A stretch of 60,078 nucleotides of DNA, filler included, from Dugesia japonica (GCA_001938525.1; 4 parts of 4 records of this genome joined end to end with filler, not necessarily neighbours in it), one strand, 5' to 3'. Shown: positions 11,351 through 60,078, numbered from the whole stretch's first letter. Notes: a model not told the origin generated them from the sequence alone. Program-made: numbers and translations.

Positions 11351-11439
11351 TATGAATATATCACCAAAATTCTGGATCAACTCAATTTTTAAAACTCTCG
11401 CAGCNAAACCTATGACTTTTTCATCACCTTTGTAATCTG

Positions 11440-12410: not shown

Positions 12411-12639
12411 TGGTCTAAATAACATATCTGCAGTACTATGTTAATTCCTTTTTATATTATAATAGTATAATTAGACTACTGAGATAATTTATCCACGTCT
12501 AAAATTGTAATATTATTGGTTTCGTCGTCACCATAACAGTAAGAGCTTGATGATCTGTCCTAAGAGTAAATTTTCTTCAGTACAAGTAATGTTTGAAATG
12601 CAATTAATATAAATTCTCTATTTATAGGAGCAGCATTAG

Positions 12640-14593: not shown

Positions 14594-14693
14594 NNNNNNN
14601 NNNNNNNNNNNNNNNNNNNNNNNNNNNNNNNNNNNNNTTAATTAATTAANNNNNNNNNNNNNNNNNNNNNNNNNNNNNNNNNNNNNNNNNNNN
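14594..14693. other. Artificial scaffold spacer N44-TTAATTAATTAA-N44
   Basis: Exactly 100 nt, with a six-frame stop linker; recurs three times. Confidence 0.95.
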
Positions 14694-21338: not shown

Positions 21339-21950
21339 TTGGATATAAAGATATTGAGTCGGGCCGACGATTTAGAAGTTTTTATCAAACAATGCCAGTG
21401 GTATTTTGACATTCTGGCAAAGCCGAAAAAGATGCGTGATGCGTTAATAGGCGCAATTATCGATGAAGATTTGATTGCTGACTACGAACGAACGGTATCA
21501 CGAGGAAATGGGTTTGAATCACGATTGAAGATGGTATTTGGGAAGCCCAAGGACATCATAGCAGATTGGGAAGAGATGTTTCTATATAAGAGAGAATCAG
21601 AGAGCATCCAGACATACTTTCAAGTAGTGAAGAAAAAGTTCGAAAATAATAAGAAAACCAAATAACCGAAGAACAAATAATCGCAAAAATTTTGGTACAT
21701 TGCAGTGGCAACGATGAAATGAACAAGAAAGTAGAAATTCGGGAATAAGCATCAATGGAGGTTATCGAGACATTAATGATAAAAATAAGGAAAATACAGA
21801 AAAGTAATTGTTATATCAAAGAAGAACGAAACTTTAACGAAGTACTGAAAGGAAATGAGAGACAAGTTTGGGCAGACAGACCGAGAACTGATCGGAAGAC
21901 CAAATACTGGGAGCCGACCAGAGACAGGACAGAATGGAAAATATTAATCA
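21339..21950 (+). pseudogene. gag: Gypsy gag fragment
   Basis: KILSRADDLEVFIKQCQWYFD aligns with KIICRSDDLEKLVNWCKIYFD of the gag at 4595. Confidence 0.7.
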
Positions 21951-22519
21951 AGTTAACATGCTCGAAATGGTATTTTTTTAAAGAAAGTTTTCTGTAATTA
22001 TGCAATCAATCGTTTTTATATTGATATCGATGAATCGGCTATTAGCATTTGTAAGACCAGTGGAAATTAAATGGAAATCAATATTAATAAAACACGTTTT
22101 ATTAATTATGACACCGACAACATTTCTATATGAAAGAATGCCAAAATATTTGATTCACAGCAATTCGATTTTATGTGCAGTGTTATATTAAACAATGCCT
22201 TAAGAAAATCGCATTTGGTAATTATTGTATTTGTCATCACAGTTATCAGTATGGCCACAAGAAAATTTACTTTAATATCGTAAAAGTTTACTTTAAAAAT
22301 TTTAAAAATTGAATTTATTTACCTATATATCTTTCGCATCGTACCTTTATTATAAATCTTATTTAGTGAACGTTTTCATGAAAACCAAACATTACAAATC
22401 ATAAAATTAAAAACAACTTTATCAATATTCACATAAATATGAATTATAAAAAGAAAACAACAATTTCATATTCAGTTTCATTTTAGTTATAAATTTTCAA
22501 TATCACTGAATTGTAATGT

Positions 22520-23181
22520 AAAGTTAAATAAGATAAATAAATGTTTTTAGCAGAAAAATGTCTGTCTTTTGCAAGGATTTTTTCAGCATTGAAAATCTTC
22601 TCTCTACAAAAGCAGAAGTGCATTGACTTTTTTGTAATAATGCAAAGATCGATGGTGACATTTCCTCTCGACTGCAGTTCACAATTGACATCCCATCGCT
22701 TTTTTTAAATACGGAGCAATAGCAATACGGATCCATTTCAAATTGTAGTTTTTTAAAGTATTCAGCAGGTGGTTTAATGTTGCACCCAGCGCTCTCCAAA
22801 GAAATTACTAATACTGCTAATAGATGGTAGTTTTGTTGAATAGTCAAAAGATCTTGGACAATTTGATCACTTTCCATTGTCTTTTGCTTGTGATAACAAG
22901 AAACCTTTATCATCCCGACTGCGCATAATTTGTTTCACTTCTGGGATATTTTTAGATAAATATGAAGCCACCTCAATCCAAAGATCACATTGAGTAAGTA
23001 TTGGTGTTGGAGAGTATATAATTGAATCAAATTGGCTTTGTTTTGATTTGTTTTTAATACTGGGTAATTTAATGCGAGCGATCAGTAAGTCAACATTGCC
23101 AAAATGAGCACGCTCCGTCATCGCACAGTTAAAGATTAAATGAGCTGCACAGTTAACATGAAATAGACGTGGATATAACAT
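22520..23181 (-). pseudogene. hAT-like (CGGBP/DUF659-type) transposase fragment
   Basis: LFHVNCAAHL (CxxH), PTPILT, C-terminal TSAFVERRFSMLK. Confidence 0.75.
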
Positions 23182-23752
23182 ATGTAAAGTTTAAAAGAAA
23201 ATAGTTAAAATTAAACTTTAATGAATATTTCTATATTTCAAAATGTTTAACACAAAATGTAAAATATGCAACCAATAAATTAAACACACTAAAATATAAG
23301 AAAAGTACACACGTAAGTCTAGTCAGTTCAATAACAACTTCCGCACAGTATTTCCAATATATCACAATTGAATATGTCAAAAAAGTCTCAGAATAAATAG
23401 ATTCAATTAACAGTTTTATCTACATTTTTTTTATGACAACACAGCTTTCAAAAAATATCTTAATAAGCACTTTTCCTATTTTCAGTTATTAAAACAGTCG
23501 TTGAGAATCTTAATTTTTAGTAACTATTTTAACTTTTCTTCACAGTGCTTGTCACATCACGACGTTTTTCAACAAAGAAATTCTTTTTATGTTTCACAAT
23601 GGTGTCCATTTATTTGCTAAAAAATTCGTTGCATGGTGTTGTAGAAAACTCCAGTGGATGATTTCGTATGATGGTAGCTATTTTTGAACTATTGCACTTA
23701 GCGACTTTAGGCATCAAGTCTCAAATGAAAGTGAGTAAAAAATGACGGGTCA

Positions 23753-25014
23753 GTGAAATACGTTAGGACATGTTATCACGAGTATCACACAATTACGTGC
23801 ATTACAGTTATTGTTCTTTCCGAGACCACCAATAACTTTCAAGTGAAATGCTTATACTGTTTGACAGTATTCTGGGGTGGTAATTGTATCCGAGCATACA
23901 TGGGTATTAAAATTGCAACATGCGTCGCCAAATGTGAAAAGGTGCCAGTGAAAATTCTGGAATGCTTCAAACCAGCAGATGCTGTTAAACAAGCTGAAAA
24001 ACAAGAAAAAGAACGAAAAATAAATCTAGATAAGGTGGTTGCATCCCCATCGTTGTCTTCATTGTCCTCAAAGCAACTGAAACTATACGATATATTCAAA
24101 AGTACTGAGAAATATTATTATCTCAGAATTATTGGGGCAAAGTATGCACCATTTATGATATCCCCAGAAATTCAGCATTTTCAGGAACATTGGTACACAA
24201 AGGTATCAAAGATGAGACGAATAGCATCGGAAGTTTTGGGATATGATAGCATGATAGTGATATTCTATAGATGACATGAACTAGGCGATGATGAATATCT
24301 TTTCGATTGTGGATGCATTCCAAATAGTTTGAATCATGTGTTTGCCTACAAAAAGTTATTAGACGATAGTGAAACTATCGAATTTCAAATAAAAATTATG
24401 ACGATGATGATGATTTCGAAGATGCAATAGAAGAGCCACAAATGTTTAAAAGTGAACCTGTAGTGTCTCTCGCTGATAGTACACCAACCAATCCATATCA
24501 GGATAATGGAAACATTAAATCAGAAAATACAATGACAATAACAAAGGTCTGTATGAAATCTCCAAGGAATTAGTAAACCTTACAAGGCGAACTCATAATA
24601 ATACCGAACCAAGAAAATCGTTGCAGGATTACTAAAAGATCTATTCCCATTATTGCAACTTGAAGACTTAGAAAGTGAATATATTAAACAACTCAGTGTG
24701 GAATTACGTAAAACTCATCCGAGCGTTGTACAAAGATACGGAAATGAAACATTTTGTGACAATAAAATTTTAAATGAATTAGTCAAAGATGAAATTAATT
24801 CACAGGTAATTATTACTGGTTTAACATATTTTACAGATTGGTACTTATGTGTTTGTGAAACCTGATGAAATACAAATTTATTTAAATGAAGCATCTATCG
24901 AAATAAATAAATATTTTCTAAATTGGATTAAAAACAATCGTGGTTGGAATATCGTAAAAAATGAAGAAATAATGCCAAGACCAAGCGCTACTAGAGAAAA
25001 TCCATTGTTATATT
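23753..25014 (+). pseudogene. Unknown pre-Env domain(s) X
   Basis: Long, mostly open frames. Motif KVSKMR...SMIVI...DEYLFDCGCIP (motif core 24290-24322) has a homologue at 47626-47658. Confidence 0.6.
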
Positions 25015-26836
25015 CTACCTGGCTGATATTTAAGATCATTATTTTAATTTGCAAACTTAATCAAACTGCGTCAATTACGGCATATGATTGTTCTCAAACA
25101 GAAATGGGAAAATTTATTCACTAATGGATGTGGAACGATGTCTTGAAGCATACTCGATAAAACTTTATACAAATGAAAATCTAAAATAATTTGTATATCA
25201 GGAATCAGGATTCAGACGAGTAAAAGTAAAGGAATGTATTGTGAAACGAACTAATTTTGTATATTATTGTGGTAAATGCAGTCATACTTCAATCATAAAA
25301 ATGACTTATATTCCAAAACTAGTCGAAATTACTCCTGAAAACTGTTTAGTGGCTTTTCAAACCAATGAAATAAAAATCAGCCCTGAGATCAAACTAAAAG
25401 CCAAACTGAATCATGCAATAAAAGAGACTATTGTTGTAAAGGGAATGCTAGAGAAAAGTGGTGATTTCACTGGTGAATCATTCAAAATATCTGAGAAAAT
25501 AGTTGACAAAGTAATAATTATTGAGGAATATGTTGCTGAATTACGATAATTTAATGGAATATTTGATGATAACAAAGAGAAACAAACCAGTTGCCAAACA
25601 GGAGAATCAATTCTTGTTTATGATGTTAAATATAATCAATGTAATTTATGACATCTTAAAACAATGGTCTTTAACGAAATTTATGGTGAAAAAATAGAAG
25701 ATAGACCAGATAAAAGTATGACAGTAAATCAACCAAAAAAGGGAATCCGAATTATACCTCTCTAAATGAGAAGAACTCAATAGTGGTGGTATCAACGTCC
25801 ACAGATGATGCAATGAGATTTATTAGAAAAGAAAAATGTATTAAATGTGGAAGTGAAATATATGGAACAAACTATAAAGGAATCTATGTTTCAAAGAAAA
25901 GTAGAAAAGCTAAAATTTGAATTCATATTGAAGATATAAAATTAATAAACTATTTTAATATCAAAATTGACTATCTATTTCATCATGGACAATATATAGC
26001 GGAAACAATGTACAGAGAAATGATACTCAATGATTGTAAACTGAAAAATGAAATTCTACGAAATAGAATAATTATGGTAATAACTAACCCAAATCTAGTG
26101 GCACCTATGCTTATATCGGAAAACGGAGTCTTTGTAAGAATTATGAGAGATGTATTGTTTAGTTATAAATGTAAAGAAGTTCCAATAAAACTCGCCAAGT
26201 ATGAAAAGTGTACAAATGAGTTGCTTGTTAATGTAAACGGAAAAATTGAGATTTATGGAACCTATTACTAGAATATTACTTGAGAAGGTGTTAAACCAAA
26301 ACACTTACAGTGTAATAGACCATTATCACCTTTATATCGTTTAACTGCAGAAACATGGATTGCCTTACCAGATCACAGAGAGGTTAAAACCCCAGAAAAC
26401 CTGAGGCTACAAAGCTGGAGTATTTAATTAATTTTACATTTCTAAATAATATTGCTCAGAGCTGAATTTATTCAAGTGAAGACATTGAAGAAGCCAGACG
26501 AAATCTATTATATCCATCTAAAAAGGAAAGAGTTATTATGGAACTAGTCGATACAATACTACCAAGAGGTACATGAAAAGTAAATTATGAATATTTATTA
26601 ACACTTGTCCACTATAAAAAGGCTACTCACAACACTATGAAAGAAGATTTGTGTTCTTTGGACAAGCCTGCGCAGGATTAATTGAAATCTATATTATGAT
26701 AACAATAGCTAGAGTGATCGCAGCACAAATTTTATCAACGTATCGATTATATGCAATAGTAGGACTATCGTGGAAATAAATAATTGGATGTGTACCTTTT
26801 CTAGCCAAATTCTTTATTATTGATCATCAATATAGA
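25015..26836 (+). pseudogene. env: Chuvirus-like / herpes gB-type (class III) envelope glycoprotein
   Basis: Signal-like WLIFKIIILICKL, then ITAYDC (25080), YYCGKCSHTS, EITPENC, KIDYLFHH, MYREMILNDC...NPNLVAP, YKCKEV, CTNEL, MEPITRIL, and membrane region FFGQACAGLIEIYIMITIARVI...LYAIVGLSW. Confidence 0.8.
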
Positions 26837-27241
26837 TAAAATGATTTTAATCAGAAAACGAGCAAACCAAAGCATTTATTAAAATATGATATTGAATATG
26901 GTCAAAATAGTGGTGATAAAGAAGGAAATAATGGTCCACCAAACTCTTTAAACAACCATCCAAACAAGAATGATGACAGTGAAATAACTCAATTTCAAGA
27001 ACCTGGAATAGTCAAAAGAAATTTGTTTCCTTATGATACATTTAGCAGGTTATGTATACCTTAAACATTTATGCAAACAGCACCTGTATATCCAATAGAT
27101 AAATTAAAGTAAATGAAACATGTTGATAATATTAATAATGATACTGTTATAAAAATGGAAGCAAGCACTGTAGAAATCGAAAGAAAGCATATATTAGGAC
27201 TACCATGTAATTATGTGATGATGACTTTTGTTAAATGCTGA

Positions 27242-30200
27242 AGACAACCTACTGTGTGGATACAATTTAACAAGCATAAAGTAAACGCTATGCTCGATTC
27301 TGGATCTAGTAATACAATTATATCAGGTGAATTACTAAGCTTCAAGGAAGCAATTCAAATTATACCATCAAAGGAAGTTGTAAAATCAATTACAAGGGAT
27401 ACATTGAATATTATTGGTCAAATTAAAGCAAGACTATTTATCGGATGAAAAGAAATAATACATGATGTGTTGGTTATGAAAAATAGCCCAGTAATGTGTC
27501 TAGTATGAATGGACGTAATGAGTCGATTACAAGGAATTTCAATGGAATTGTGTACAGGTAATTTGATAATAAGTGGAAGAAATAATGTCATTCATAAAAC
27601 AAATGAAGTGTTCTTAAATCAATCATTAACAATTCTACCACACACGGAAATTGTGCATTATGCTAGAACAATAACTGAAATCGATAATGACTATTTGTTT
27701 CAACCCTGTCTCAATTTGATGAAAAAATATGACACTGCAATATGTTACAAAATAGTAAATGTCAAAAATCAAGTAGTGCCAGTATGCATTAAAAAGGCTA
27801 AATTACCAAAAAATGTTAAAATATACAAGGAACCAGGCGTAGCAAGCTCAAATTTGTCTGATAGACAAAGTAAAAGATTTGACAATCTGTTAAAGCAATA
27901 TTACGAAGTATTTGCAAAGCATGAATATGAATGAGGCATAACTAATGTCATTGAATCGCAATCCATATACATACAGAGAAGAATGAGACCGGCAATTATC
28001 AGCAATGAACGAATTCGGAATTATACGTGATAGTATGTCGCCATTTTTATCATCAAGTGTAATAGTAAAGAAAAATGATTGAAATCGCAGATTATGTATT
28101 GATTATCGAAAACTGAATCAAATAACAAGAAAGGGCATATGTCCTTTACCATTGCCACAAGAAATGTTCGATTTAATTGGATAAGTTGAAATTATATCAG
28201 AAATAGATTTAAACATGGAATACAGTAAATTTGGGGTTACATTAGAAGATAAAAAGAAAACTGCATTATCAGGTGGCAAAGGGTTGTATGAGTTTAATGT
28301 GTTACCATTTCGATTAATGGAAGCACCAGCAATATTTCAAAGAGGTATAAATTTTATATTACGAGATATTTCTAATGTTTTAGTATATATTGATGATATT
28401 ATAAAATTCTCGAAAACATTTGATAGAAGTAGTACTCGAAAGATTAAAAGAAGCTAATCTTAAAATAAAACCATCAAAATGTGAATGGGGAAAAAACGAA
28501 GTTGTGTATGTTGGTCACGTAATATCAAAGCATGGATTAAAACCAAATCCAGATAATGTAGTAAATATAAGAAATTATCCAATATCAAACAGCGTCGATG
28601 ATGTTCTACAATTTTTGAGTTTGGTCAGTTATTATTGGAAGTTTATTCAAACGTTTTCTCATCTTGCTCAACCATTAAATTTATTACTCAAGAAAAAGAC
28701 AAAGTTTGTATGGGGAAAACATCAGCAAAAAGCTTATGAAATATTAAAAAAGAAACTATTGCGTGAACCAATCTTGTGTTGTCCTGATTTCTCAAAATTA
28801 TTTATATTAATGACTGATGCTAGTAATTATGCGTTGGGAGCAGTGTTAGGTCAAAAAGTTGACGGAGAGAAAAATCACGTGATTGCGTATGCAAGCAGAT
28901 CATTAAAACCACACGAGGAAAACTACTCAACAATTGAAAAAGAAACGTTAGCACTAATTTATTGAGAGACCACATTCAGGCAATATTTAATCAGCAGAAT
29001 GTTACAATGGTTAATGAAGCATAGAGATACGAACAGTAAATTAATCCGATGGTCATTAGCCTTACAGGAGCATGATTTCGAAATAAAATATCGAACAAAC
29101 AAAGCAAATACAAATACAGATACTTTATCAAGAATCAACGACAATAATGAACAGAAGCTAGAAAATATAATATTTGCGGCAATAGAGGCTTCTAATATTA
29201 CAAGTGAATTAATCAAAGAACAAGAAGAATACAAACAATTAAAATATGCTAAACAACATGTGGCAATAATCAAGGATGAGAAGCAATTGAAGGAAATCAT
29301 AAAATAAAAGCAAAGGTATTATGAATTATCTAAGAAATAATGAATTGTTAATAGTAGTACCAGAAAAGCACCGAAACTCATTAATGATGCAATATCATGA
29401 CGGTGCATTTGGAGGGCACCTCAGAGCTCGAAAAACATTATCAAAAATGAAACAAAAATATTATTGGGATACTGTGAAACTTGATGTTAAAAACTGGTAT
29501 CAGACATGTAAAGTGTGCTTAACTATAAGAAAAACCTATGCCAATACGATGGGCCCCAATGGAAATGACAGCAATGAAAGTTATAGGACCATTGCCAAAT
29601 ACAGTAAAGGGTAATAAATACATTCTAGTTTTCTGTTATTATCTCACAAGATCGTTAGAAAGTTATGCTATACCGAATCAAAAAGTAGAAACAATTGCTC
29701 AAATATTCGTAGAACATATCATATTTAAATATGGAACTCCAAAGATGTTGCTCACTGATCAAGGAGCGAACTTTCAAAGTGAATTGTTTAAAGCTATAAC
29801 ATAATTATTCGGAATACTCAAATTAAACACATCACCTTACTACCCTCAAACTGATGGACTCGTTGAAAGACTCAATGGAACTCTTATAAATATGATTTTA
29901 TCATATGTTAATCGAAAACAAAAAGATTGTGACGAATTCATTAAACCTTACTTATTTGCATACAGAAATGCAATTATACTGGAGAAACTCCTTTCTATTT
30001 AATGTACATAAGAAGAAACAATATACCTATCAATTTAAAATTTTAACAACCTATATCCCAGTATATGGAAATCCCAAATTACAAAACAATAATGCATGAA
30101 CGAATGCAATTAGCATGGACTCGAGCTGGATTAAAAATGAAATACAATCAGGAAAAAATATAATGAAGCTTATGATAAAAAGGCTCACAAGTCCTAAGTC

Positions 30201-30381
30201 TACAAACACCATTCAAAGGACCTTATGAAGTTCGTGGAAAACAGAGACAAATTTCAAATTAAAACGAATTCAAAAAAAAAGAAGCGAACCAATAATTGTG
30301 CATGCAAATCGATGCAAACAGGTTCCGAAAGAAGATAAAGAAAGATACTCATTACGAAATAAAACAAAGATAAAAGAGAAC
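27242..30381 (+). pseudogene. pol: Gypsy pol: protease, RT, RNase H, integrase
   Basis: AMLDSGS; RLCIDYRKLN; LPFRLMEAPAIFQ; LVYIDDII; LMTDASNYALGAVL; YSTIEKETLA; H..AFGGH...CKVC; LLTDQGANF; YPQTDGLVERLN; FKGPYEV. Confidence 0.95.
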
Positions 30382-30399
30382 TAAATAATTTTTCATAGA

Positions 30400-31585
30400 A
30401 TCCAAATCTCTTAGAGTTATTTGAACAAAAGCTTGTTCATTATGTGTGAAAACCAATTTCCCACCTACTGAAACTCAAGTAAGCATTCTAGAAAGAATAG
30501 ATGTCTACTCAACATATACTCAAATAATATGAAAATTTAAATACCAACTAAACGAAAAAATCATTCTTGAAAATAAACTGGAACCTTTCCCAATTTCTTC
30601 TGAAATAAATCACACCAATTCAATCTATATAAAAAACGAACTCATTATGAAATACAAATACCCTTGGATCGTCACCGAAATGGTGTCACCATAGATACAG
30701 CATTTCAAACTCCAAGGTATCATAAAAATAAATGTGTGGACAAAAGAATTTACAAACTTTGTCAATATTATACCAATACTGGAAGGTATAAACATCTTTT
30801 GGATACCAATTCAATCCATAAAAGTTTAAATAAAAATTGAAAACTATCCAATTAAAACCCTAATCCATCATAAAACCTTTGCCTATTATAACAATCTAAC
30901 AATGAATAGAAGTTATTCAGTAATAATTACTTATTCTGAAATTTTCATACTCAAAAATGGAACCTTTTCCAATAACAAGAAATCACACAATATCATTGTA
31001 TAATGAAACAAATCGAATTACGAGATTATTGCAAATGAATCATTTCAAATCTCAAGAAACTCAAAATCCGATGAAAAAGTTATCCTTCGTTACTATTCAA
31101 AGTACTCAAATGAACGTTTCATACTAGATAATAAAGGGTCTTTAGAAAAAAAATTTAATATCTTACATTTAGATAAAGTGCACCATCTCAAGGTACTCTA
31201 TCAAAAACAACAATCAAACCCTACTGATTGGCGAGCAACTTTCTCAGAAAATCTTCGAATAATTCCGGACGAACTGAACAAAGTTCTTAGTCAAACAAAC
31301 AATGTTGTTTTAACAAAGATCAATCATTCAGTGTTAAACAATTCTCTATTAACAAAAAATAAACAACTATTGAACTCATTTTATAATTTGAGCACAATGA
31401 CATCGTTAACTGATTTATATATTAACAATTCTCATGCTATCTTTCTGTGCATATTCATCGCATTATGTTTATTCGTCTCACCAATATTATTATTCATACT
31501 AATTAAAATGCTTACATCAGAACAAAGAATTTCGAAGGACTCAATGTATCAAATGGACAATATCTATATAATCTCGGAAGTATAG
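30400..31585 (+). pseudogene. Post-integrase accessory ORF with a C-terminal transmembrane helix
   Basis: ORF 31178-31585 contains AIFLCIFIALCLFVSPILLFILI; disrupted coding-like sequence lies upstream. Confidence 0.45.
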
Positions 31586-33134: not shown

Positions 33135-33234
33135 NNNNNNNNNNNNNNNNNNNNNNNNNNNNNNNNNNNNNNNNNNNNTTAATTAATTAANNNNNNNNNN
33201 NNNNNNNNNNNNNNNNNNNNNNNNNNNNNNNNNN
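33135..33234. other. Artificial scaffold spacer N44-TTAATTAATTAA-N44
   Basis: Same 100-nt linker. Confidence 0.95.
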
Positions 33235-34940
33235 AAACCGATTTCATTACACGGCGGTAATGAATCTAAATAGGCTAATGAATCGGGATATCAAAAAGAA
33301 CGGGGTACCGATACAATCAATTTGGTGCAAAGATTGCCTAAATGGGTTCAGGGACAACAATGCTTACGACAAGCATCAACCAATTTGCGAGCGAATACAA
33401 ACCGGCACAACANNNNNNNNNNNNNNNNNNNNNNNNNNNNNNNNNNNNNNNNNNNNNNNNNNNNNNNNNNNNNNNNNNNNNNTAATATACGCTGATTTTG
33501 AATCAGTACTCCCGGCGAATGACCGTCATTTCCAAAAACATTTACCGATTTCGGCTGAACTTTGGTTGGTAAATAATTTTACCAACGTAAGCAAATACAG
33601 CCAGTTTGTTGGAAATGACTGTATCTATGAATTTTTAAAGGCAACAGAGAATATAAGCAAAAATGTGGTGTATCCATATTACGATCGAAATGGTAAAAAG
33701 AAAATCAGGATTACACCAGCTCAGGAAGAGGAATTTAATAGGAGCACAAATTGTTATTCATGTAAAAAAGAAGATAATCGACCCAGTTCGTGATCACGAT
33801 CATTTCACAGGTCGATATAAAGGAGCAGCCTGTTCGAAATGTAATTTAAGCAGAAGATTATTAATACAACTACCGGTTGTATTTCATAATTTGAAAGGAT
33901 ATGATCTTCATCATATTCTTAAATACGNNNNNNNNNNNNNNNNNNNNNNNNNNNNNNNNNNNNNNNNNNNNNNNNNNNNNNNNNNNNNNNNNNNNNNNNN
34001 NNNNNNNNNNNNNNNNNNNNNNNNNNNNNNNNNNNNNNNNNNNNNNNNNNNNNNNNNNNNNNNNNNNNNNNNNNNNNNNNNNNNNNNNNNNNNNNNNNNN
34101 NNNNNNNNNNNNNNNNNNNNNNNNNNCGTTATAATGTCAAAGGGTATTTTTCCATATAATCTTGCTACAAGTTTGCAAGTGTTGGAAAATACCACAACAA
34201 TGCCACCAAGATGGGAGGTAGTTAGTGAGCAAGATTATGAGAAGGCGTTAGAAATGTGGACAATAACAGGATGCAACAATTTATTAGATTACANNNNNNN
34301 NNNNNNNNNNNNNNNNNNNNNNNNNNNNNNNNNNNNNNNNNNNACTTTTTTCAACAGTTCAGGGCTTAATCGATAGCAAATAATAATTTGGATCCATTAA
34401 ATTTCTTTGGAATCCCGGGTATGAGTTGGGCATCAGCATTGATGTCGTTAAAGGAGCCCATTGAACTGTTGATGGACAATGGTATACCTTTTTTGAAGGC
34501 GGTATACGAGGTGGGCTAACATTTGTAAATAAANATTATGTTGCCTCCAATGCGAACACGGAATTACTGTATATAGATATCAACAATCTATTTGAATGGG
34601 CTCTAAGTCAAAAATTACCGTATGCTGATTTGGAGTGGGTGTATAGTGGATTAGACGAAATTATTGAAGAATGTAGATCAGCAGACTTCGAGTCTCTAGC
34701 ATATAGATACACATTGGAGGTGGACATGGTTATTCCGGCTGAGATATAAGATAAGTTGAACGATTTACCTGTAGTAGCAGAACATCAAACTCCTCCAGGG
34801 TCAAAAGTGAAGAAATTATTATTGACTCATAACCCGAAATTTAATTATGTNNNNNNNNNNNNGTTGCTGCAAATGTACATAAGATTAGGAGTACAGGTAA
34901 CATCGGTTCATAGGGCGGTTAAGTTTAAACAAGCTTGGAT
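33235..34940 (+). pseudogene. Polinton pPolB (near-contiguous, gapped and frameshifted)
   Basis: IYADFES, VRDHDHFTGRYKGAACSKCNL, PVVFHNLKGYDLH, KGIFPY, GIPGMSW, GIRGG, YIDINNLF*WALSQKLP, LEVD, KKLLLT, VHRAVKFKQ. Confidence 0.92.
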
Positions 34941-36593
34941 TCTGATCGTGATGCTCTGTTCCTGCTGCTCTGTACACATCAAAGTTTATCATTACTGGTA
35001 ATAAATTTATTGTTATTAAAATAATAATATTAATTATAATATAAATTTAGTTTTCAATGATTAGACTGCTCCGTCTATTTGTACACCTACAATTCCTGCT
35101 CCGTCAGTTCATGCAGTGACAATTCCTGCTCAATTAGACATGAAAACTGTTCCGTATAGGTAATAAATTATTTTAATTATAAATTTTATGAAACAATTTA
35201 GTATTTTAGGCTATCATCAATAAAGAAATTATGAAGGGGAAGAAAAAGAATAAGAAAAGAATAAGAAAATTAAGAGAAAAGAAAAAAACAATGTGAACGA
35301 ATATCAGCCCTCTTCAGGGCTACAATTGATGATTGAAAAGTTATGTTTTTTTTATTAGTTAATTTTATTCAATTTTAGTTTTTTGTTAATTTTATTGATT
35401 TTTAGTTTAAGTTTTATTAGATTTATAAGTTTTTTATTAGATTTTAGTTTTAGTTAAATTTAGTAAAGTTTTATTTATTTTAACAGATTTTGTTTTTTAT
35501 ATATATTTTATAATAAGTTTTATTTAATAACTTGTTGTTGTTCTTATTTTATTTAATTAATTTTAAACATAACATTAAAACATGAACATGCGCACACATA
35601 CACATATAAACATACAGTAAAACATTAGGAATGCAAATAAAATAAAGACAAAACAATAGGGATGCAATGAAACAAAGCAACTATTATAAACATATTGAAA
35701 AAATAAATAAATATATAATAAATCTAGATACTATTATAGATAGATTATAATAATTTCTATTACTTCCGGAGACTTGCAATTTAGATCCATGTTGAGAGCT
35801 TTTGTTACTTTAATCTTGTCTTCTTCAANNNNNNNNNNNNNNNNNNNNNNNNNNNNNNNNNNNNNNNNNNNNNNNNNNNNNNNNNNNNNNNNNNNNNNNN
35901 NNNNNNNNNNNNNNNNNNNNNNNNNNNNNNNNNNNNNNNNNNNNNNNNNNNNNNNNNNNNNNNNNNNNNNNNNNNNNNNNNNNNNNNNNNNNNNNNNNNN
36001 NNNNNNNNNNNNNNNNNNNNNNNNNNNNNNNNNNNNNNNNNNNNNNNNNNNNNNNNNNNNNNNNNNNNNNNNNNNNNNNNNNNNNNNNNNNNNNATAAAT
36101 TCTTGAGAGTGATTGCTTTCTTCAATTTACACTGGTTCAAATATTTCTCATAATTTGTTCTTAAATGCCTGTTTTTTCTTGCAAAAATGGATGGGATACT
36201 TACATTTTCCTTGTGTAATTCTTCTTCTTTATTATCCTTGTTGCAAATTTCGATTTTCTTGATCATTTCTTTTTGTTTTGTTGATAAATTGTTTAACGTC
36301 ATTTCGCGAAAATAATGTTTTGATTACTACAAATTAGTCTTTATATATTGAATCATCTGTGTATGTGTATGTTCTTTGTTTACACGATTGGTTGTTTGCA
36401 GTATTAGTTGTTCTTTGTTTTCATACGTATATGATTGGTTATATTTACATTTCTTATTTTATTGGATAACAAAANNNNNNNNNNNNNNNNNNNNNNNNNN
36501 NNNNNNNNNNNNNNNNNNNNNNNNTATTTTATTGGATAACAAAATAGTACAAATTGCTAAAAATAATTTAATAATTTCATTATTTTCTAAGAA

Positions 36594-37899: not shown

Positions 37900-37928
37900 T
37901 ATCATTATTAATATTATCGTTATTATTA

Positions 37929-37985
<57 letters not shown>

Positions 37986-38035
37986 NNNNNNNNNNNNNNN
38001 NNNNNNNNNNNNNNNNNNNNNNNNNNNNNNNNNNN

Positions 38036-38083
<48 letters not shown>

Positions 38084-38107
38084 GTTATTATTATTATTAT
38101 TATTATA
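37900..38107. repeat. (ATT)n microsatellite
   Basis: Directly visible. Confidence 0.97.
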
Positions 38108-39662: not shown

Positions 39663-39717
<55 letters not shown>

Positions 39718-39733
39718 TAAAAATAATAATAAT
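39663..39733. repeat. (AAT)n microsatellite
   Basis: Directly visible. Confidence 0.95.
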
Positions 39734-42104
39734 ATTGGGGTATCACCTGAGTTGTCATGGCGACTGGGGAAATATCAGCCCTCATGGGACCCCTCCAAGA
39801 ATTTATCTAATGCCCTTTATTAGGTCTTCGGTATAGAGTCGTTGACTCCCAACACTTACTTGAGAGCTCACTCGTACACTTTTAGTTTGGGTTCATTATT
39901 TTTTCCTTATTATACCATTATAAATCAACAATATTTTAGAATTAATTATTTATATTTATCTACACGAAATTAAGAGCACCCGTGTCTAACCACTGGGTAG
40001 GCTCTACAGGGGCGAATCCAAAAGCTTCTTCGTCATCCTCAGTATTCCAGCGAGTCCATGTCTCTCGCTCAAGACGGTGGGAAAAATCGGCAATTTATTG
40101 TTCCAGAAATCAATTTTTGCGGGTGAGTATCTGGCTGGATTGTTTCGCTATTTCATCTTGTTTCTTCACAATGATATCCAATTTTTTAATTAACTGGTTA
40201 CGCTGAGTGAGATGCCTTAATAGCGCGCGCTCATTTTGGCGTTTGATATGTCTTTCCAGTAATAAGTTTTGAATTAAGCGGCGACACCTACGAAGACTGA
40301 TAAGAAGACGAATTCGTGGCACAAAAAACGAATTAGAATTAGGAGATAGCTCAATCACTATTAATATTTAATTAGCAGTAGAATCCTTAAAATAAACATA
40401 AACGAACGACAAGTAAGTCAATATAAAGCGAAAAGATTTTTAATTACAATATTAAATGAATATAAGAGGTCATGGCCGTGAGGTTTGTGTGCCCTTATCA
40501 ACCATTAATGATTCGAGCGGCATGGCATTCTGTAAGGTAAGAATAACGGCGACCAGTTTATTCTCACGGTCATAGAAGGACCGGATAATTTCTGCGAACG
40601 ATTCGATTTGACTTTTCTATAACCGTTTCTGGTGATAGATTGCCTCGGCCTCTTTTTGGAATGCTATATACTTGGCTTTATAGCGTTTTACCTTACCGTC
40701 GGCTGTTCCTGTATCTGCCTTCCAACGACGGTTGGCGAGGCGACACAGATCCCACGTCATTTTGGTGTCATTGCTCGTTTCTCTTACCTTTTTGGTTGGA
40801 GCGGACAATCGATTTAGTGATTGATGCACTGAAAAAAAAAGACATCAATAGTTACAGAAAGGCAAAGATAAAATAATGACCTAAACTCAAAATATTATTA
40901 TCCATGATAAGATAAATTAAAACCGATACCTAAAGACATCATTTACAACAAGAATACTTTTTATTAGTATTTACAAAAAGTCGCATAGTCAATTAAGACG
41001 CAGTAACATTATTGGTGGTGGTGTCAGAGTTTTCGGAACTGCCACCAGCTTTAGTATTCCTTACATTCCATAAATTGTCCAAAACGAAGGCACTCAAATT
41101 GGGATAAGGGAGAAGATGCTCAGTTGTCATGCTCACGACCGATGGAAATTCTGCCCATTCGCTTACCGTATGGAAATCCTCATTATAGATGGGTGGGAAA
41201 GCCGTGGCAGTATGTAACACTTCTCAAGCTCGATTGGGGCCGGACCAATCATAATAGACCTGGCGCTCAGTGACATCCAAGTACCTCTCTTCTTCTATTT
41301 CGATGGTAGTCAGGTTCGATCTGTCTACCAGAACCCCTGCCTTTCTGTCATAGGGATTCTTATACCGCTTAAAAACAGAACGGCCGGTTCTACGGTCGAG
41401 GAGAAAATTTCCTACTTGTATTCCACTAAAAAAATAGTGAAATGCTAAACGAATATTTATTGGTGATGATAATTTTAATCAATTGGGTCTAGGCATTAAA
41501 AGTTGATAGGTAGGAGATACAATACAGGTTTTAATTAACAACTATATTAATTCTACAGTACAAAGAAACAGTGATTAATATTCGAACATTGCTATAAAAT
41601 TAGTTTGATTCAATATCTAAGTCTACTATCAATGGTAGGGGATAAAATTCCAGGAAACATAGGAGGTCTAACTCATCCAGGTAGAGAACTATATCGGAAA
41701 AGAGTAAATGACCAATTAATTGTTTGCAGCGCACGGCTTTAACCGCAAGGCAGTTTTTAGTTCAGCAGACATAATCTAAAAAAAATAAAAATCATTGACC
41801 CGACTTACACCAGTAAATACATATGGTGTCATACTTTCGAACCCCTTAAGGAACATATACCCGATCCTACTTATTGTTATCGCCATGCGTCCATCAAAGA
41901 TAAAACCTAAAATTAGCCTAATGATGAGCATAACTATACGCCTGAATCGATAATAGAACCCTTAATCAAAAATTAAATAATAACCTCAGTGACCCTGTTG
42001 ATGGTAGTGACCATAATAAAGGTGATAGTCAAAATAATGATGATAATAATTATTTTAAATAATAAGAACAATAATGAAGATGACATTAATACACATGATT
42101 TTAT

Positions 42105-42130
42105 TGAATAATATTAATAATAATAATCAA

Positions 42131-42180
<50 letters not shown>

Positions 42181-42230
42181 NNNNNNNNNNNNNNNNNNNN
42201 NNNNNNNNNNNNNNNNNNNNNNNNNNNNNN

Positions 42231-42287
<57 letters not shown>
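42105..42287. repeat. (AAT)n microsatellite
   Basis: Directly visible. Confidence 0.97.
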
Positions 42288-42289
<2 letters not shown>

Positions 42290-44299: not shown

Positions 44300-45607
44300 A
44301 ATTTAATTCAATATCACAAAGTAAATATCACAAAGACTCCCATCTTTGAAGTTTTTTATATATATATTTTATCATTTAAATATCACAATTACTCCCTTTT
44401 TTGAAGTTTTTAATAGTTATATTTTATCATGTAAATATCCCAAATATAGGAAATCCCCATGCAAACTATTAAGACTGCTCCATCCCATGCAAAATATCAA
44501 GACTGTCGGATATCTTGAATTAATATAGAGACTGTCCATACCATGTAAAATATAGATTCTGACCATGCCATTGCATAAATACCATGTAAAATATAGAGAC
44601 CTCGCAAAATATCGAGACAGCCCCATCTCATACATAAATATAAAATCTGCTCAAAAAAAATTTAATGAAAGTAAAAAATTTCTCCCAAAAAGAAATTTTA
44701 AATTACCCGCCAAAATTTTTTTAAATTTCTCTTCAAAAAATTCAAAAATTACTAAGATTACACTCTTCCCTGTTCAAAAAATATTAAAAACAATCCTTCC
44801 CTGTTCAAAAATACTCAAAAAATACTCAAAAATACATCATTTTTACAAAAATACCATTAGTTTCTATAAATTTATCATTTTAAGCAAAATACAGCATTTT
44901 ACAGAAAATAAAGATTTCAAAAGATTATTACTTCATACACACCAGGCAGAAAATTTCAAATAAATCTTATAAAATCTGATAATTAATTTTCTTTCTACCC
45001 ATACTACTCTCCCCCTCCTAAAAATTTTTTTACACACTTATACCACTTAAAAATCAACCAATCAAATTCAAGCACTTAAAATCAAAAATCAAAGCACATT
45101 CGACAAACAACATCTTCCCAATTACCTATCCAACAAACCATTAACCACTAAAATCCATCAAACCCATACAAACCTACACCCTTTAAGAAATCACTCACGA
45201 TAACAAATATAATTGTGCCCGTGAGCCACTACCCTTCTAGGAAAAACCATCCATTCGACCTCATAAGTCCTTTTGACAATTTATAACCGAATTTTTATCC
45301 AAACACAACCAAATTTTAAAAACCACGAAAAAATTTATTCCAAGATCTCCAGCTTTCCCTCGAGTTCAATTTCCTTCTTACACTCACACACATATACAAT
45401 TTAAACTTGAGCTACTTTTTAAAAACCCACTTAGAAACCCAAATACACAAATTTTTAAAATCAAAAAAATCTGATCCTATCAAAACATTTTTGATCCTAA
45501 AAATCTTAGAAAAAAACCCCCTAAATTGTAGCACAATCTTACGTTTTACCGAGCCCCTTCTTGGGGTATCCCCTCAAATTGTGCCCGTGCGCCACTATCT
45601 ATCTACT
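44300..45607 (-). mobile_element. Right end/TIR of a Polinton-like element
   Basis: Ends AATTGTGCCCGTGCGCCACTATCTATCTACT at 45607 and is the inverted homologue of 59844-60078. Internal copy of the subterminal motif at 45211; truncates env2. Inner boundary uncertain. Confidence 0.7.
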
Positions 45608-46745
45608 AACAACATTGGGGTAACAAGATTCGGATTCACTATCGATATTGCTAATCGATTTTGATTATTTCTGTACTCCATTTGCACTCATTAAAGACGA
45701 CTTCATGATAAATTTCCTCCATTTGCTATAACAAACTATGATAGATGAAATCAACCTTATTATTTGCATAGTTTATTATTTTTATATCATTAGTATTTAA
45801 TTGTGTAGATTTAGGGATATTTATTTTTCCCAAATAATTTTTTTCATAAACAAGATAGTCACATTTCGTTGTGGAAACTTTCTTGATAAGTCGAATTGCA
45901 TCCTTGGTGTCGGTTGATACTAATACAATTGGAGTACTCTCTTCTCCGATTCTCTCTTTGCTGCCTACTTGCTTTTTATTTAACTTTTTTACTTTTTGAT
46001 TGTCCATTAATCTGGATCTTTTTACTTCTGTTTTTTCTCTAGTTCTCTTTTTTTGCGTCAAAGACAGCTTTTTTAATAATGTCAATTCACAAAAATCGCG
46101 TCTTTCATCATTTAGAAGTGTAGCGAACCCCCTTCGACAGCTAGAAAACCGTGCATTGCAATGGGGATTTCCCACCATATTTCCTGTTTCCACTTCGAAT
46201 ATGCCTTCATATTCTCTCAATTTGACTGTTTAATTCTCTAAATCAACTACTCGATTTACCAAATTATTTTGCTTTGTTTTTGATCGCCAGTACAATCACA
46301 GTCTTCATCAATTGTTCCTCCTCTAATAACTGCTTCTGCCAGTATCTTTCTGAATTCTGCTGCTAACGTCACTTCAATATCGAATTTTAATTTTCCTGTT
46401 CGAAAAGCGTCTAAACTATCATCTGGTAATATGCTTACTAGCTTTGATATAAGCTTAGCTGATAATATAGCTGCATAACTATGCGTTCCACAATATTATT
46501 TGAACACCACTTTTTGGACTCTAAAATCTCTCTCACCTTAGTTCTGTAATACTTTTACTTGATAGATATAATATAAAGATGGCTTGATAATATCTAATCT
46601 ATCTGTATAAGCTTCATTGCAATCTACTACATCTACTAATGAATATATACCTGATGGGATAGGATTCTTACAATCATATGCTAACAAACTCGGTTTGATT
46701 TATTAATCCTAACATCATCAAAATCAATAATATGATTTGAGTTGA
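45608..46745 (-). pseudogene. env: Second chuvirus-like/gB-type glycoprotein (env2), 3' truncated
   Basis: QIILLILMMLG signal, LLAYDCKNP...SLVDVVDCNEAY, YCGTHSY...KLVSILPDD, STDTKDAIRLIKK...KC, NNKVDFIYH, VNPNLVTPML; collinear with the env at 25015. Confidence 0.8.
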
Positions 46746-48300
46746 ATTTTCGATTCCTGAACTAGTTAAACGAAATGATCTCGGATTGAATTCATACCTC
46801 GGAATTTCACCGTTATTTAATAGAAATTCAAATCTATTTCCATCCAACTGGAGGATTCGATCCAAGTTTTGAATCTTTATTCGAATACTGACCTAAACTT
46901 TAAAACTTTAGCTTGCACTTTGCGAATATATCATTGGCTGCATTTGCTAAGGCATTTCAAATCATAAGAGCTAAGGCAGTCATAGCTCGCCCTGTTGTAA
47001 CTCCTTGTGCGGCCAAAGTATGAATAGTATTTTTTTTACTTTAACGCGGTAGTTTCTTTGGTAACCGTTTGATGAGTGTCTTTAGCAATAAGGTTAGCTT
47101 ACTCATCCCAATCTCCAGATTTCTCAATTTTCAATTCTGGCTTCATTTGTCGAATTATTTGCATGATTTTGCTACCTGTTTCGGGTAGCGTTGACCCATC
47201 TATTTCATTTTCTAAATTAATTTCATTGATTATATTTTCTAATGCTTTAACTCTTATTTCTCTATCAACCGTTTCATTCACCCGTTCGATATTAGTGCTC
47301 CTTTTAGGTCTACCTCTTCTTGTAACTCTTGGTTGATTTGTCTCCCTTGGAGCGCTAGATTTTAAAACTTCTGCATCTATTCCTGAATTTTGGACTGGAC
47401 AGGGATCTAATTCTTCTTCCACAAATATTTTTCATGGTACATTTGGTGCATTATCTCCTTTCGCAGCATTTACATTTACTTGGGGGTCATATTTCCCATT
47501 ATTATTTCAAATACTGTTACTGAATTCTGCTGAGTAAACTCCGCTATAACCTCTGGCAAACTCAACATTTTCCAGTAATAATCAGCTCCTTCTATTGTCA
47601 ATACTGATGTTATAGTAGTCTGTCATGGCAAACAACCGACATCTACTAAATATTCGTCATAATCAACTTGATTTCCCAAAATCACTATGAAAGAAGAGCT
47701 TGGAAATCTGATTCCAATATCCATTCTCAATTTCAACACCTTCTGATTACAATAATATCTTTTCACTTCCGGTATCTCCTGATCTGGTTTTCTTGTTTCC
47801 ACTTAGAAATGACTCTGTCTTTTTGGATCTTGCCTAATTACTTGACCATTTTCAACATTCGAATTTCTTTTTGGTAACTACTTGGCTTACTTGCCAGATG
47901 GTAGTATTAATGGTACTATTTCCTTTAAAGCATCTGTTGGAATGTTCAATGACAATGTCCAACTCAAAATATCTTTAATATTTTCATTGTTTCTTGGATT
48001 TGATTGGATTTCTCTTTGCAACCGCCATGGAATTCTGTTTTCACATTTGGCAGAATGCCGTAAAACAGAATAATCGTTTCTCTATTTTATTTCTCATTGA
48101 ACAAATATAGTTCAAATTCTCTGCGTTTTACTCCCTTTAAATGTGTTGTCAACCTAGCTACTAGTTCACGCACCTTTATTTCAGTAACTACATTCACCCC
48201 TTTCGTCATGTGTATAACTACTTGTGCATTTCTCAAATCCCAATCATGATGCAATTTGTTGCCTATTTTACGACAAATTTCTGCAATTGGTTTAAAATAA
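46746..48300 (-). pseudogene. Pre-Env domain X homologue
   Basis: KVLKLR...SFIVIL...DEYLVDVGCLP at 47626-47658; no pol motifs seen. Confidence 0.6.
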
Positions 48301-48344
48301 ATAATTAAGATACAATAAAAATTGCAAATAATAAAATGTTTAGT

Positions 48345-48444
48345 NNNNNNNNNNNNNNNNNNNNNNNNNNNNNNNNNNNNNNNNNNNNTTAATTAATTAA
48401 NNNNNNNNNNNNNNNNNNNNNNNNNNNNNNNNNNNNNNNNNNNN
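48345..48444. other. Artificial scaffold spacer N44-TTAATTAATTAA-N44
   Basis: Same 100-nt linker. Confidence 0.95.
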
Positions 48445-52469: not shown

Positions 52470-53545
52470 GTAGCACAGTCAAGCTATTTCTCGTGATTGG
52501 AAAATCAAAATAGCCAAGATCATTTAAAGGAACAGAAATAAAGAATCTTCCTGTTGACTATTATAATCAAAAAGGAGCATGAATGGATAGAAGGATCTTT
52601 GAACATTGGTTTAAAAATAAATGGGTCCCAGAAATTCGAGTTTTTTTAAAAAGTAAAGGATTGCCGCAGAAGACTGTTCTGTTATTAGATAATGCTCCTT
52701 GTCATCCAAATGAAAGCATACTGAAAACAGACGACGGTCTTATAACTGCAAAATTTTTACCACCTAATGTAACATCTTTAAGTCAACCTATGGATCAAGG
52801 AGTTATCTATTTAATGAAACGCCATTATCNCAATGATCTCCTTAGAAGCTTTTGCATAGAGAATGATGATTTAATGAATTTATGGAAAAAAATGACAATG
52901 TTAGATGCAATATATGGAGCTGTTAAATCTTGGAACAAAATTAAGCCAATAACCCTAGTTCGATCGTGGTTGAAAATNNNNNNNNNNNNNNNNNNNNNNN
53001 NNNNNNNNNNNNNNNNNNNNNNNNNNNTGGAACAAAATTAAGCCAATAACCCTAGTTCGATCGTGGTTGAAAATTTTGTCAAACGTAGAAAGTAATGTTT
53101 TGGACTCTATAGAACCTTAGATATATAACATTTCAAAATTATGTGAATTAATGAAAATTTTAAATGCTTTTGAATATGCTGATGACCAAAATATTAAGAA
53201 ATGGATGGAATTTGATTTATCTGATCCAGGATTCCAGATACAGAGTGACACGGATATTATTTCAAATCTAATTTCAAATCCGAATACATCGATCAATGAA
53301 ACTTCGACTATAACAATAAAATATTTTTAAGAAAAAGTTGAGATGATATTAGATAGTCATTGAGAAAGTCACTTAAACAAACTAAAATTACCGATTTTTT
53401 AATAAAGCATTGAATATATTTTCATTGTTTTTGTATCATACTAGTATTTATTATTTTTGTTTTATTATTTTGTGAATTATTCGTGGTTTTCGATTATCCG
53501 TGCCGGCCCTCCCCATCATTAGCCAGGATAATCGGGAGTTTACCG
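52470..53545 (+). mobile_element. pogo/Tigger DDE_1 transposon, 3' part with TIR
   Basis: [41 protein letters not shown]; 3' end GGATAATCGGGAGTTTACCG followed by TA. Confidence 0.9.
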
Positions 53546-56261: not shown

Positions 56262-56610
56262 CTATGATTCTGGATCATGGAGCAATTCCAGCGGCCTATC
56301 CATTGTCTTGAGAGCACTTAACCAGTTCAATCCCGGTAAGGAANNNNNNNNNNNNNNNNNNNNNNNNNNNNNNNNNNNNNNNNNNNNNNNNNNNNNNNNN
56401 NNNNNNNNNNCCCAGAAATAAATGTCTAGCTTCTTGTAATGAAACATATACTCTAGTAAATTACTACTTCCATATTCGACCCATGCCAACGTTGCAATTT
56501 CGTATTCAAACTCTATGATTTCTGGCCATTTTGGAGATACACATGTTTCATTAATCAGCATATCATAGGACGTTGCAAACTTGTAAGGAAATATAACTTT
56601 ACTCTGGTGT
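56262..56610 (-). pseudogene. Polinton pPolB fragment
   Basis: FPYKFATSY...NLLEYMFHYKKLDI...SLPGLNWLSALKTMDRPLELL, homologous to 34130-34470. Confidence 0.8.
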
Positions 56611-58705: not shown

Positions 58706-59843
58706 CAGTAGTGTATTGGGGCCTGAACGTACCAGAACAGCGTTCCGGTATATTTTTCCAGTAAAGAATTGTTTTTAATTTCCACTGAAAATTATATTTT
58801 AAATTGACGAATTTGAAAAAACATTTCAAAAAATATGTGAATTAATAGAGGATTTATCTTTCTTTGTTTCTTTTGACTTTTCTAAAATAAATAAACATCA
58901 AGTGTTCTGTGTTTGAAATATTACATACCATATTATCAAACTACAAATTCCGACAATGGAGCTAAGGCGCCCATGCGAACTAGTGGACTTACGTTCGAAT
59001 CTCATCAATTACTATTTCATACCGCCACGCTCATTAAGCTGTTGTTTAGATTATATTATTGTGTATAACGCCCACATCTTTTGCTTGTTCATTATATATA
59101 TAATATTAAAGGTAAAAAATAAAAGTGTTTAAATATTTTTGAAGTCAATCATTTTCAAAATTTAATTTAGTTTAATTATATTTTAGGAACTTAAATATAA
59201 GCATATATACAATTNATTATTGAAATATTATTTNATAAAAAATAATAAAAATTAATTTTTTATATTTAATATTATAAATGAGCAAAAAACGTAAACAACC
59301 CACTTTGGACAAAATCTTTGAAAAAAATCTCAAAACTTAAAACAACATAAAGAAGATGTAGTAGTGCTAGAAAACAGGATAAATCAAATGGACATTTTAC
59401 CAACATCAACAGAAAACTTTCAAAAACAAGAAGAATCACTATTAATAAAATTGGCTGAGTATTTGGGCAGCAGATATGATCTTCGAAAAAAAATATATAC
59501 TTGGCTAAAATGCGATTCCGGAAAATTAGGATGTCTGACTTGTTCAGCTATTCAGACTTTAGAACCTTTAAAGACGCAGGAGTAAGAGTCTCAAAAGAAT
59601 GGAGTGGCACTAAGGTATCAGCTTATGGTAAGGATAAAGCTTCACAACTTACTTCTTTGCGGAAAAAAATGTATGAACATTATAATAGATTTTCACATAC
59701 AACAACTGAGAAAATCTTAAAAGAAGCAGACAATAAAAGGCTTGAAGTTATTGTAAATAAAATGAATGAATCTAAAATTTGTAACACCAGAAAAGTTTTA
59801 GAACTGAGTATTATATTGCTAAACATGATCGCCAATATTCTGA
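58706..59843 (+). mobile_element. hAT transposon 5' end with ZNF862/KIAA1586-like transposase N-terminus
   Basis: CAGTAGTGTA...GAACGTACCAGAACAGCGTTCCGG end; MSKKRKQPTL, YTWLKCDSGKLGCLTC, SKEW, SLRKKMYEH...SH; interrupted at 59844. Confidence 0.7.
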
Positions 59844-60078
59844 AATAGATAGATAGTGGCACACGGGCACAATTTTTAATGAGTTATCGCGCACCCCACC
59901 GGGAGGCTCGGAAACACATTGCGCTTGAGCTGCGTTTTTTTTACATGATTTTTGTGCTCGTTTTTTTTCTTAAGATTTTTGGGATCAAAAAAGTTTTGAT
60001 CGGATTAAATTTTTTTTAATCGGATCAGTTTTTTTATCCTGGGTGTGTGTTTATTTTTAAATTTAAAATTTTGTGTGT
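59844..60078 (+). mobile_element. Left terminus of a Polinton-like element (runs off the window)
   Basis: AATAGATAGATAGTGGCACACGGGCACAATTT matches the reverse complement of 45576-45607; 59960-60015 matches about 45460-45516. Confidence 0.7.

Follow-up and report, generated by a model that had tools for sequence, protein, structure and literature searches.

The last 2.7 kb of the third scaffold in our window carry, on the minus strand, the N-terminal part of a decayed envelope gene (env2) and, upstream of it, a coding region referred to here as X. By the window we mean the whole stretch of Dugesia japonica DNA under analysis (60,078 nucleotides, filler included), which consists of four scaffolds with 29% GC, joined through N-flanked stop linkers at 14594-14693, 33135-33234 and 48345-48444. 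This composition fits planarian genomes, which are >70% AT. A second element with a related envelope gene (env1) lies on the plus strand of scaffold 2; it is called copy 1 and serves as reference, and the env2 element on scaffold 3 is called copy 2 (Table 1). That the two sit on different scaffolds, as was proposed from the sequence alone, is confirmed by the joins at 33135-33234 and 48345-48444, which separate them. The 5' end of the locus is the end of the scaffold, and because copy 2 ends on this side at a linker, any gag and further accessory domains are out of view. Both copies are truncated at their 5' ends, and no pair of LTRs was found around either of them within the window.

Several other repeats and decayed elements were recognized. 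Long AAT/ATT microsatellites lie at 37900-38106, 39663-39734 and 42107-42288, each at an assembly gap. Nested and decayed Ty3/gypsy gag-pol pieces lacking env are found at 4200-8300 (+), 10800-13600 (-) and 14694-15300 (+), and a DDE_1 transposase fragment (PF03184, E 2e-29) at 52583-53038 (+). Fragments at 33235-34960 (+) resemble a protein-primed DNA polymerase, which we take to be of the Polinton type, and contain an endonuclease VII insert (PF02945, E 5e-4); a second, related piece lies at 56274-56603 (-) on scaffold 4.

Table 1. Positions of the main features of copy 2 and copy 1, counted from the first nucleotide of the window
Feature	Position	Strand	Basis or remark
Assembly linker (N44 + stop linker + N44)	48345..48444	.	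cuts copy 2 on the 5' side
X2a, stop-poor frame (1 stop/123 codons)	47985..48344	-	ubiquitin-like look-alike at ~48230-48021, ending ..HGG
X2b, homologous to copy 1 24164-24322	47584..47811	-	homology by z; fold by eye and position
Low-complexity linker, RGRP motif starting at 47329	47200..47480	-	sequence
Probable Bcl-2-like domain, interrupted near 47040 and 46900-46930 by stops and changes of frame	46844..47170	-	by eye
Hydrophobic stretch	46701..46733	-	mean KD 3.26; frame changes near 46830-46850 and 46700
Decayed env2, comprising the N-terminal ~60% of a fusion glycoprotein of the gB/chuvirus type	45601..46699	-	PF24664, tblastn, shuffles
Foreign dispersed repeat cutting env2	45463..45605	-	initial 17-mer also found at 45231 and 59854
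True X of copy 1	24110..25060	+	Ubl-like block 24164-24322; Bcl-2-like part ~24689-24947; hydrophobic stretch 25020-25052
env1, full-span env and C-terminal transmembrane region	25061..26863	+	PF24664 matched piecewise over positions 38-614 of 653
PR, RT, RNase H and integrase of copy 1, preceded by an in-frame linker	26864..30380	+	Pfam; Ty3/gypsy order
Motif pair LAYDC/TAYDC (env2/env1)	46684 / 25077	- / +
Motif pair YCG (env2/env1)	46495 / 25265	- / +
Motif pair NNKVDF/NIKIDY (env2/env1)	45764 / 25957	- / +
Motif pair NPNLV (env2/env1)	45636 / 26086	- / +

Two Diverged Envelope Genes

The sequence-only reading described env2 as collinear with env1 yet strongly diverged from it, and this is what the comparison gives (32-38% identity, z 26-31), with all four of the motif pairs that it quoted present and in the same order. 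By tblastn within the window, 46648-46283 aligns with 25112-25477 at 32% identity over 122 aa (E 1e-14) and 45941-45660 with 25768-26061 at 38% identity over 99 aa (E 1e-15). In shuffle tests these two main blocks reach z 30.8 and 25.8, values attained by 0/2000 shuffles in either case, and the middle and end pieces of the gene reach z 8.7 and 8.0. The profile of the Monjiviricetes_fusion family (PF24664), a fusion glycoprotein of chuviruses and mononegaviruses, matches env1 with E values down to 2e-21 and env2 twice at E 4e-5, below the curated cut-off, at positions 21-157 and 274-346; env2 thereby covers positions 21-346 of the 653 in the profile. The envelope part of the cassette proposed for this locus is therefore a real env of the gB type, but only its N-terminal ~60%, ending at ~45601. 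The protein sets contain one related env fragment (P0001), which is 50% identical to env1 and 30% to env2; among proteins of 1564-4977 aa there is no intact relative.

Both genes are decayed, env2 with 4 stops in the 334 codons of the aligned region and frame changes near 46260 and 45660, and env1 with 4 stops in 376 codons. An estimate of dN/dS, suggested as a check on the earlier claim, was made with the alignment on X-read segments in place of repaired proteins. The 212 codon pairs without stops give a pS of 0.69 (95% CI 0.60-0.79) and a pN of 0.41 (0.36-0.45), which after correction corresponds to a dS of ~2.0 with synonymous sites near saturation, a dN of 0.59 and a dN/dS of ~0.3. There has been purifying selection between the env1 and env2 lineages. 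The density of stops in each copy implies ~6-7% (2-15%) substitution since its death, with 13-15% of residues changed. As this density is low in relation to the divergence of the envs, most of the divergence predates insertion, and the two copies represent two old lineages.

The Downstream End of env2 and the Gene Order of Copy 1

At ~45601, some 700 nt before the point at which copy 1 has its transmembrane region, env2 gives way to a dispersed repeat; the gene is thus interrupted midway by a repeat and does not run to its end and into an LTR. The 17-mer with which the repeat starts has three matches in the window, against 0.02 expected. The repeat is present at 45215-45605 (-) and 59846-60016 (+) and begins TAGTGGCNCACGGGCAC; two starts lie 366 nt apart after env2, and the third, at 59854, cuts a transposase-like ORF at 59340-59830, such that the copy at 59846 also adjoins a decayed ORF, though a different one. 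The repeat may represent one end of a non-autonomous DNA transposon; no matching inverted end was found in the window.

In the remaining 12.4 kb of the scaffold, neither pol nor the C-terminal half of env was found by translated self-comparison or by permissive tblastn (best E 0.048). Pfam searches with 139/139 downstream ORFs that are free of stops and 35 aa or longer returned no retroelement family and a single match, to endonuclease VII. No pol, gag or LTR is thus attached to copy 2 in the window. Since env2 is truncated in mid-gene and no pol lies downstream, copy 2 by itself cannot show that env precedes pol.

Within the window, env followed by PR-RT-RH-IN is found in copy 1 only, the pol of which carries RT_RNaseH_2, Integrase_H2C2 and rve in the order of Ty3/gypsy. 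The linker between env and PR is open in the frame common to the transmembrane region and the protease, with 4 stops in 153 codons versus 13.9 expected. This count is reached by 0/2000 of the null and is similar to the decay in the known coding parts of copy 1; one of the four stops may be a true terminator. About 660 nt separate the DSG motif of PR from RT, and Pfam gave no dUTPase match in this interval.

Downstream of the copy 1 integrase, in the frame of env and PR, lies a decayed ORF of ~400 codons (30380-31582, +) with a hydrophobic segment at its end. It is stop-poor (0/200 of the null), has no match in Pfam, and appears by eye to be leucine-rich-repeat-like; it may be an accessory ORF on the 3' side of the element. 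On the upstream side of copy 1, a decayed short gag at 21339-22010 (+), a candidate for the gag of copy 1, resembles the gag at 4685-4963, with 32% identity, and is separated from copy 1 by 2.1 kb of DNA-transposon debris. Decayed ORFs at 22500-23190 (-) have no Pfam match and by eye resemble the C-terminal region of a further transposase of the hAT type.

From the window alone, pol could also lie upstream of env2, since copy 2 is cut on its 5' side at 48344. The locus would then derive from a conventional gag-pol-env element with pol beyond the end of the scaffold and X as an intervening ORF, and ORFs after integrase do occur, as 30380-31582 of copy 1 illustrates. However, pol follows the homologous X-env segment in copy 1, no integrase is present within 1.6 kb upstream of env2, and no GAG-POL-ENV element is reported for Platyhelminthes in the portion of PMC13524379 available, which together make such an element very improbable.

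Relation to Burro and to the Smed Errantiviruses

Burro/GYPSM1, described in 2019, comprises giant Ty3-gypsy elements of dugesiid planarians with a length of >30 kb (PMC6431247). Their ORF1 of 4,873 aa encodes Gag, MATH, Ubi2/SUMO-like, BCL2, a mononegavirus-like env, PR, a dUTPase-like insert and RT, as well as BIR and ankyrin domains, env lying between gag and pol in the same frame (PMC6431247). BURRO1 is expressed and repressed by PIWI in S. mediterranea (PMC8532177). In the window an env in frame with PR, as in a single polyprotein, is a Burro-like feature of copy 1 only. Decayed fragments of Burro are known from planarian genomes (PMC6431247), and copy 2 is likewise decayed; unlike Burro it is a fragment of 2.7 kb, with any Gag, MATH, BIR, ankyrin and LTRs out of view.

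More recently, Nematoda, Bryozoa and Platyhelminthes were reported to carry only gB-type env in the order GAG-ENV-POL, in several clades, and this order was treated as an old and diversified arrangement, with no GAG-POL-ENV in Platyhelminthes (PMC13524379, published in 2026). Six Schmidtea mediterranea families with 1-215 copies are described there, their env domain I-II sequences being given in the supplement, and intact copies number 8 for Smed_4, 45 for Smed_1 and 215 for Smed_2. All six are listed without LTR or primer site (supplement 1, rows 1448-1453), which would fit very long elements of the Burro type with LTRs beyond the searched flanks. The Smed errantiviruses are of the HSV/gB-type C1a and have the same env family and motifs as env1 and env2, with env before pol; an ectodomain between two hydrophobic segments is one arrangement listed for such elements (PMC13524379). 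They are intact, in contrast to env1 and env2, which are decayed and show a divergence beyond what decay explains.

To place the two genes among these families, identities were counted by hand and by eye over two gap-free blocks, leaving out Smed_3, 5 and 6, which looked more distant. By these counts env2 shares 40/79 and 32/69 residues with Smed_errantivirus_4 (72/148, 49%) and 22/79 and 25/69 with Smed_errantivirus_1, and env1 shares 50/79 (63%) with Smed_errantivirus_1 and 46/79 with Smed_errantivirus_2. Judged by eye, then, env2 appears nearest to Smed_errantivirus_4 and env1 to Smed_errantivirus_1. The published identity of Smed_1 and Smed_4 is 35.5%, like that of env1 and env2 (PMC13524379). 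As decay accounts for only ~13-15% amino-acid change, env2 would be a sister of Smed_4 and not a decayed copy of it.

Elements of other hosts resemble these in part. Nematode GAG-ENV-POL metaviruses (Sacco et al., 2022, via PMC13524379) and their bryozoan equivalents are Ty3/gypsy elements with a gB-type env upstream of pol; they belong to other host clades, and in the POL tree they do not form a single clade together with the flatworm elements (PMC13524379). Anakin is similar in that a chuvirus-like glycoprotein with a gB fold was captured by an LTR element, which is however a BEL/Pao element of mosquitoes as opposed to the Ty3/gypsy order of copy 1 (PMC7642597).

The suggestion that env-before-pol is an old and diversified architecture was right: dS is saturated under purifying selection, env1 and env2 match different Smed lineages by eye, and both Burro (PMC6431247) and the flatworm GAG-ENV-POL elements (PMC13524379) back it. 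The architecture was already published in 2019 and 2026, copy 2 alone does not prove it, and the locus adds little on gene order. Mosquito genomes also contain solo glycoproteins (PMC7642597). By analogy env2 could have been domesticated, or could be an endogenised glycoprotein of a chuvirus or mononegavirus, in either case standing alone and not as part of a retrotransposon; in favour of this, PF24664 is a family of viral proteins and pol is missing downstream. This is hardly credible given that a block of X upstream is common to the pol-bearing copy 1, that the nearest relatives are envs of retrotransposons, and that env2 is broken and truncated instead of preserved.

The Region Upstream of env2

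Upstream of both envs the sequence-only reading saw about 1.5 kb of coding sequence that is neither Pol nor integrase. For copy 2 this is accurate, the region being 1.64 kb long, poor in stops on the minus but not on the plus strand (path cost 18 versus 31.1 for the null; 0/200 for the minus and 137/200 for the plus strand) and without significant similarity to the integrase of copy 1 (7/100 and 36/100 shuffles). For copy 1 the claim was overstated. An ORF at 23735-24274 was considered as X and rejected because the 125 codons at its 5' end encode a sequence that matches BED-finger/DUF659 hAT proteins; 11/12 of the matching proteins bear out the hAT call by sequence (P0003 is a low-complexity repeat protein), and 7/12 contain Pfam zf-BED or DUF659. 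With 23735-~24110 (+) being a hAT fragment, X of copy 1 spans only ~0.95 kb. The fragment lies in frame with X, which creates a chimeric ORF of 179 aa.

One block of 53 aa is common to the X regions of copy 1 (X1) and copy 2 (X2), at z 6.8 (1/2000) and z 7.5 (0/200), and makes them homologous; no other pieces of X align significantly between the copies. In copy 2 the block belongs to X2b, for which the protein sets contain no homologue. Ubiquitin-like patterns in X were noted ahead of any comparison with the description of Burro. X2b is probably a Ubi2/SUMO-like domain, as its appearance and its position, which is that described for Burro, suggest. The candidate ubiquitin-like domains in X have no match in Pfam, among PDB sequences, in the Atlas or among homologues. 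Single-sequence models of pieces of X have a pLDDT of 37 (X2b) and 44, the latter with the order strand-strand-helix-strand-strand-strand, and fold searches with them gave a best Z of 4.0, no E<=0.001 and no ubiquitin fold among the matches.

X2a has no counterpart in copy 1 and likely belongs to the element. Its pattern ending in ..HGG, which has no library support, is ubiquitin-like in appearance. A duplication relating X2a to X2b was considered and is not significant (153/200). Close to the end of the scaffold, upstream of the X2a frame, a T-rich tract with CAG at its end (48281, -) resembles a splice acceptor, and such tracts are common in AT-rich DNA. The RGRP motif at 47329-47297 (-) in the linker of X2, which we take to be AT-hook-like, is absent from the surviving part of X1.

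The evidence for a Bcl-2-like domain comes mainly from copy 1. Read with an X at its break, this part of copy 1 matches positions 3-100 of 100 in the Pfam Bcl-2 profile at E 0.19 among 24,736 families, which is below significance and the Pfam cut-off, and a match to BrxL is slightly better (E 0.053). The best two of the 4 PDB matches are to Bcl-xL residues 124-190, spanning BH1 and BH2 (E 0.31 and 0.35). Such matches would be weak if obtained blind; they gain some weight from the fact that the family is the one named beforehand at this place by PMC6431247. The corresponding part of copy 2 has no Bcl-2 match in the libraries and no significant alignment to that of copy 1 (213/500 shuffles). Its best PDB match is CENP-W (E 0.45), and a histone-fold reading of 47170-47000 on this account was set aside as chance. 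By eye, copy 2 has a BH1-like GVTTGR at ~47004 and a BH2-like WIESSSW at ~46864, spaced by 142 nt versus 136 nt in copy 1, and the landmark spacings of the two copies agree. A hand-written BH1 pattern matches only the X regions of the two copies, which constitutes no test as it was written after viewing both. From these motifs and spacings, 46844..47170 of copy 2 is a probable Bcl-2-like domain. The hydrophobic 11-mer that was seen as an internal signal before env2 is indeed there, starting at 46733, 52 nt before AYDC (60 nt in copy 1).

As in Burro, a BCL2-like domain would then stand directly upstream of the mononegavirus-like env with a Ubi2/SUMO-like domain before it, a likeness in domain order alone (PMC6431247). 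A possible second ubiquitin-like unit and the RGRP motif are not mentioned for Burro in the available part of PMC6431247. X itself was considered as a gag and rejected, having no Pfam gag match and z of 2.7 and -0.2 against two gags of the window. A related alternative is that the locus derives from a GAG-ENV-POL errantivirus that belongs to the Smed_4 lineage and is not Burro-like, with X2 as the C-terminus of gag or an unrelated accessory region. No piece of X2 has a library match, a single block of X is common to both copies, the candidate gag of copy 1 scores marginally against X2 (z 2.7, 1/100), and Burro finds no mention in the main text of PMC13524379. Nevertheless, the other gag of the window does not match X2 (57/100), X1, homologous to X2 through the common block, carries the Bcl-2-like match, and the BH1-like and BH2-like motifs occur in copy 2 at matching spacing, so that we regard this alternative as unlikely.

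We thus consider the locus to be a decayed internal fragment of a planarian Burro-type/GAG-ENV-POL Ty3-gypsy retrotransposon, Smed_4-like and of a lineage unlike that of the Smed_1/2-like copy at 24-31 kb, with a probability of roughly 0.85. Neither finding that would have refuted the sequence-only reading was made: the alignment of the envs is significant, and no integrase precedes env2 in the 1.64 kb available. The element is now dead, cut 5' by the end of the scaffold and 3' by another repeat.

A Possible Coupling of Envelope Production and Cell Survival

An element of this kind would be translated as one long frame leading from accessory domains through env to PR-RT-RH-IN, an organization seen in copy 1 and published for Burro (PMC6431247). 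The segment before env would consist of a ubiquitin/SUMO-like domain, a linker and a Bcl-2-like domain, as the weak matches in copy 1 indicate and as copy 2 may have by extension. The hydrophobic stretch after the Bcl-2 domain may act as an internal signal by which the ectodomain enters the ER, with a cut by signal peptidase near AYDC and with the transmembrane segment of env stopping transfer, so that Pol would stay in the cytosol and be freed by the protease of the element. Signal-peptidase cleavage, return to the cytosol through a transmembrane segment and release of Pol by a protease are established polyprotein biology. Judging from the respective families, the gB-type trimer would fuse particles with neighbouring cells or with germ or stem cells, and the Bcl-2 module may keep the producer cell alive.

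Proteins of the Bcl-2 family carry a tail anchor after BH2. The hydrophobic segment is found 96-132 nt after the BH2-like motif, and since this is the position of the Bcl-2 tail anchor, the cut by signal peptidase could also leave a Bcl-2 homologue with its anchor. We tentatively propose, at somewhat worse than even odds, that one segment might serve both as Bcl-2 tail anchor and as the signal of a gB-type fusogen, that a single cut might free an anchored anti-apoptotic protein 1:1 with Env, that the one or two Ubl/SUMO units might be sites for host proteases, and that the module might be conserved across envs that are ~35% identical. No statement of such a coupling of tail anchor and signal was found in the literature searched, including the available portions of PMC6431247 and PMC13524379.

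The locus links two descriptions, in that the envs resemble the Smed errantivirus set of 2026, and the upstream module and the in-frame env-pol resemble Burro as described in 2019. This suggests that the Ubl/Bcl-2-env cassette is common to at least two deeply split planarian lineages. The dual use of the hydrophobic segment, if true, would offer a testable mechanism by which a retrotransposon could couple the control of cell death to the making of its envelope, in an animal whose stem cells are highly active.
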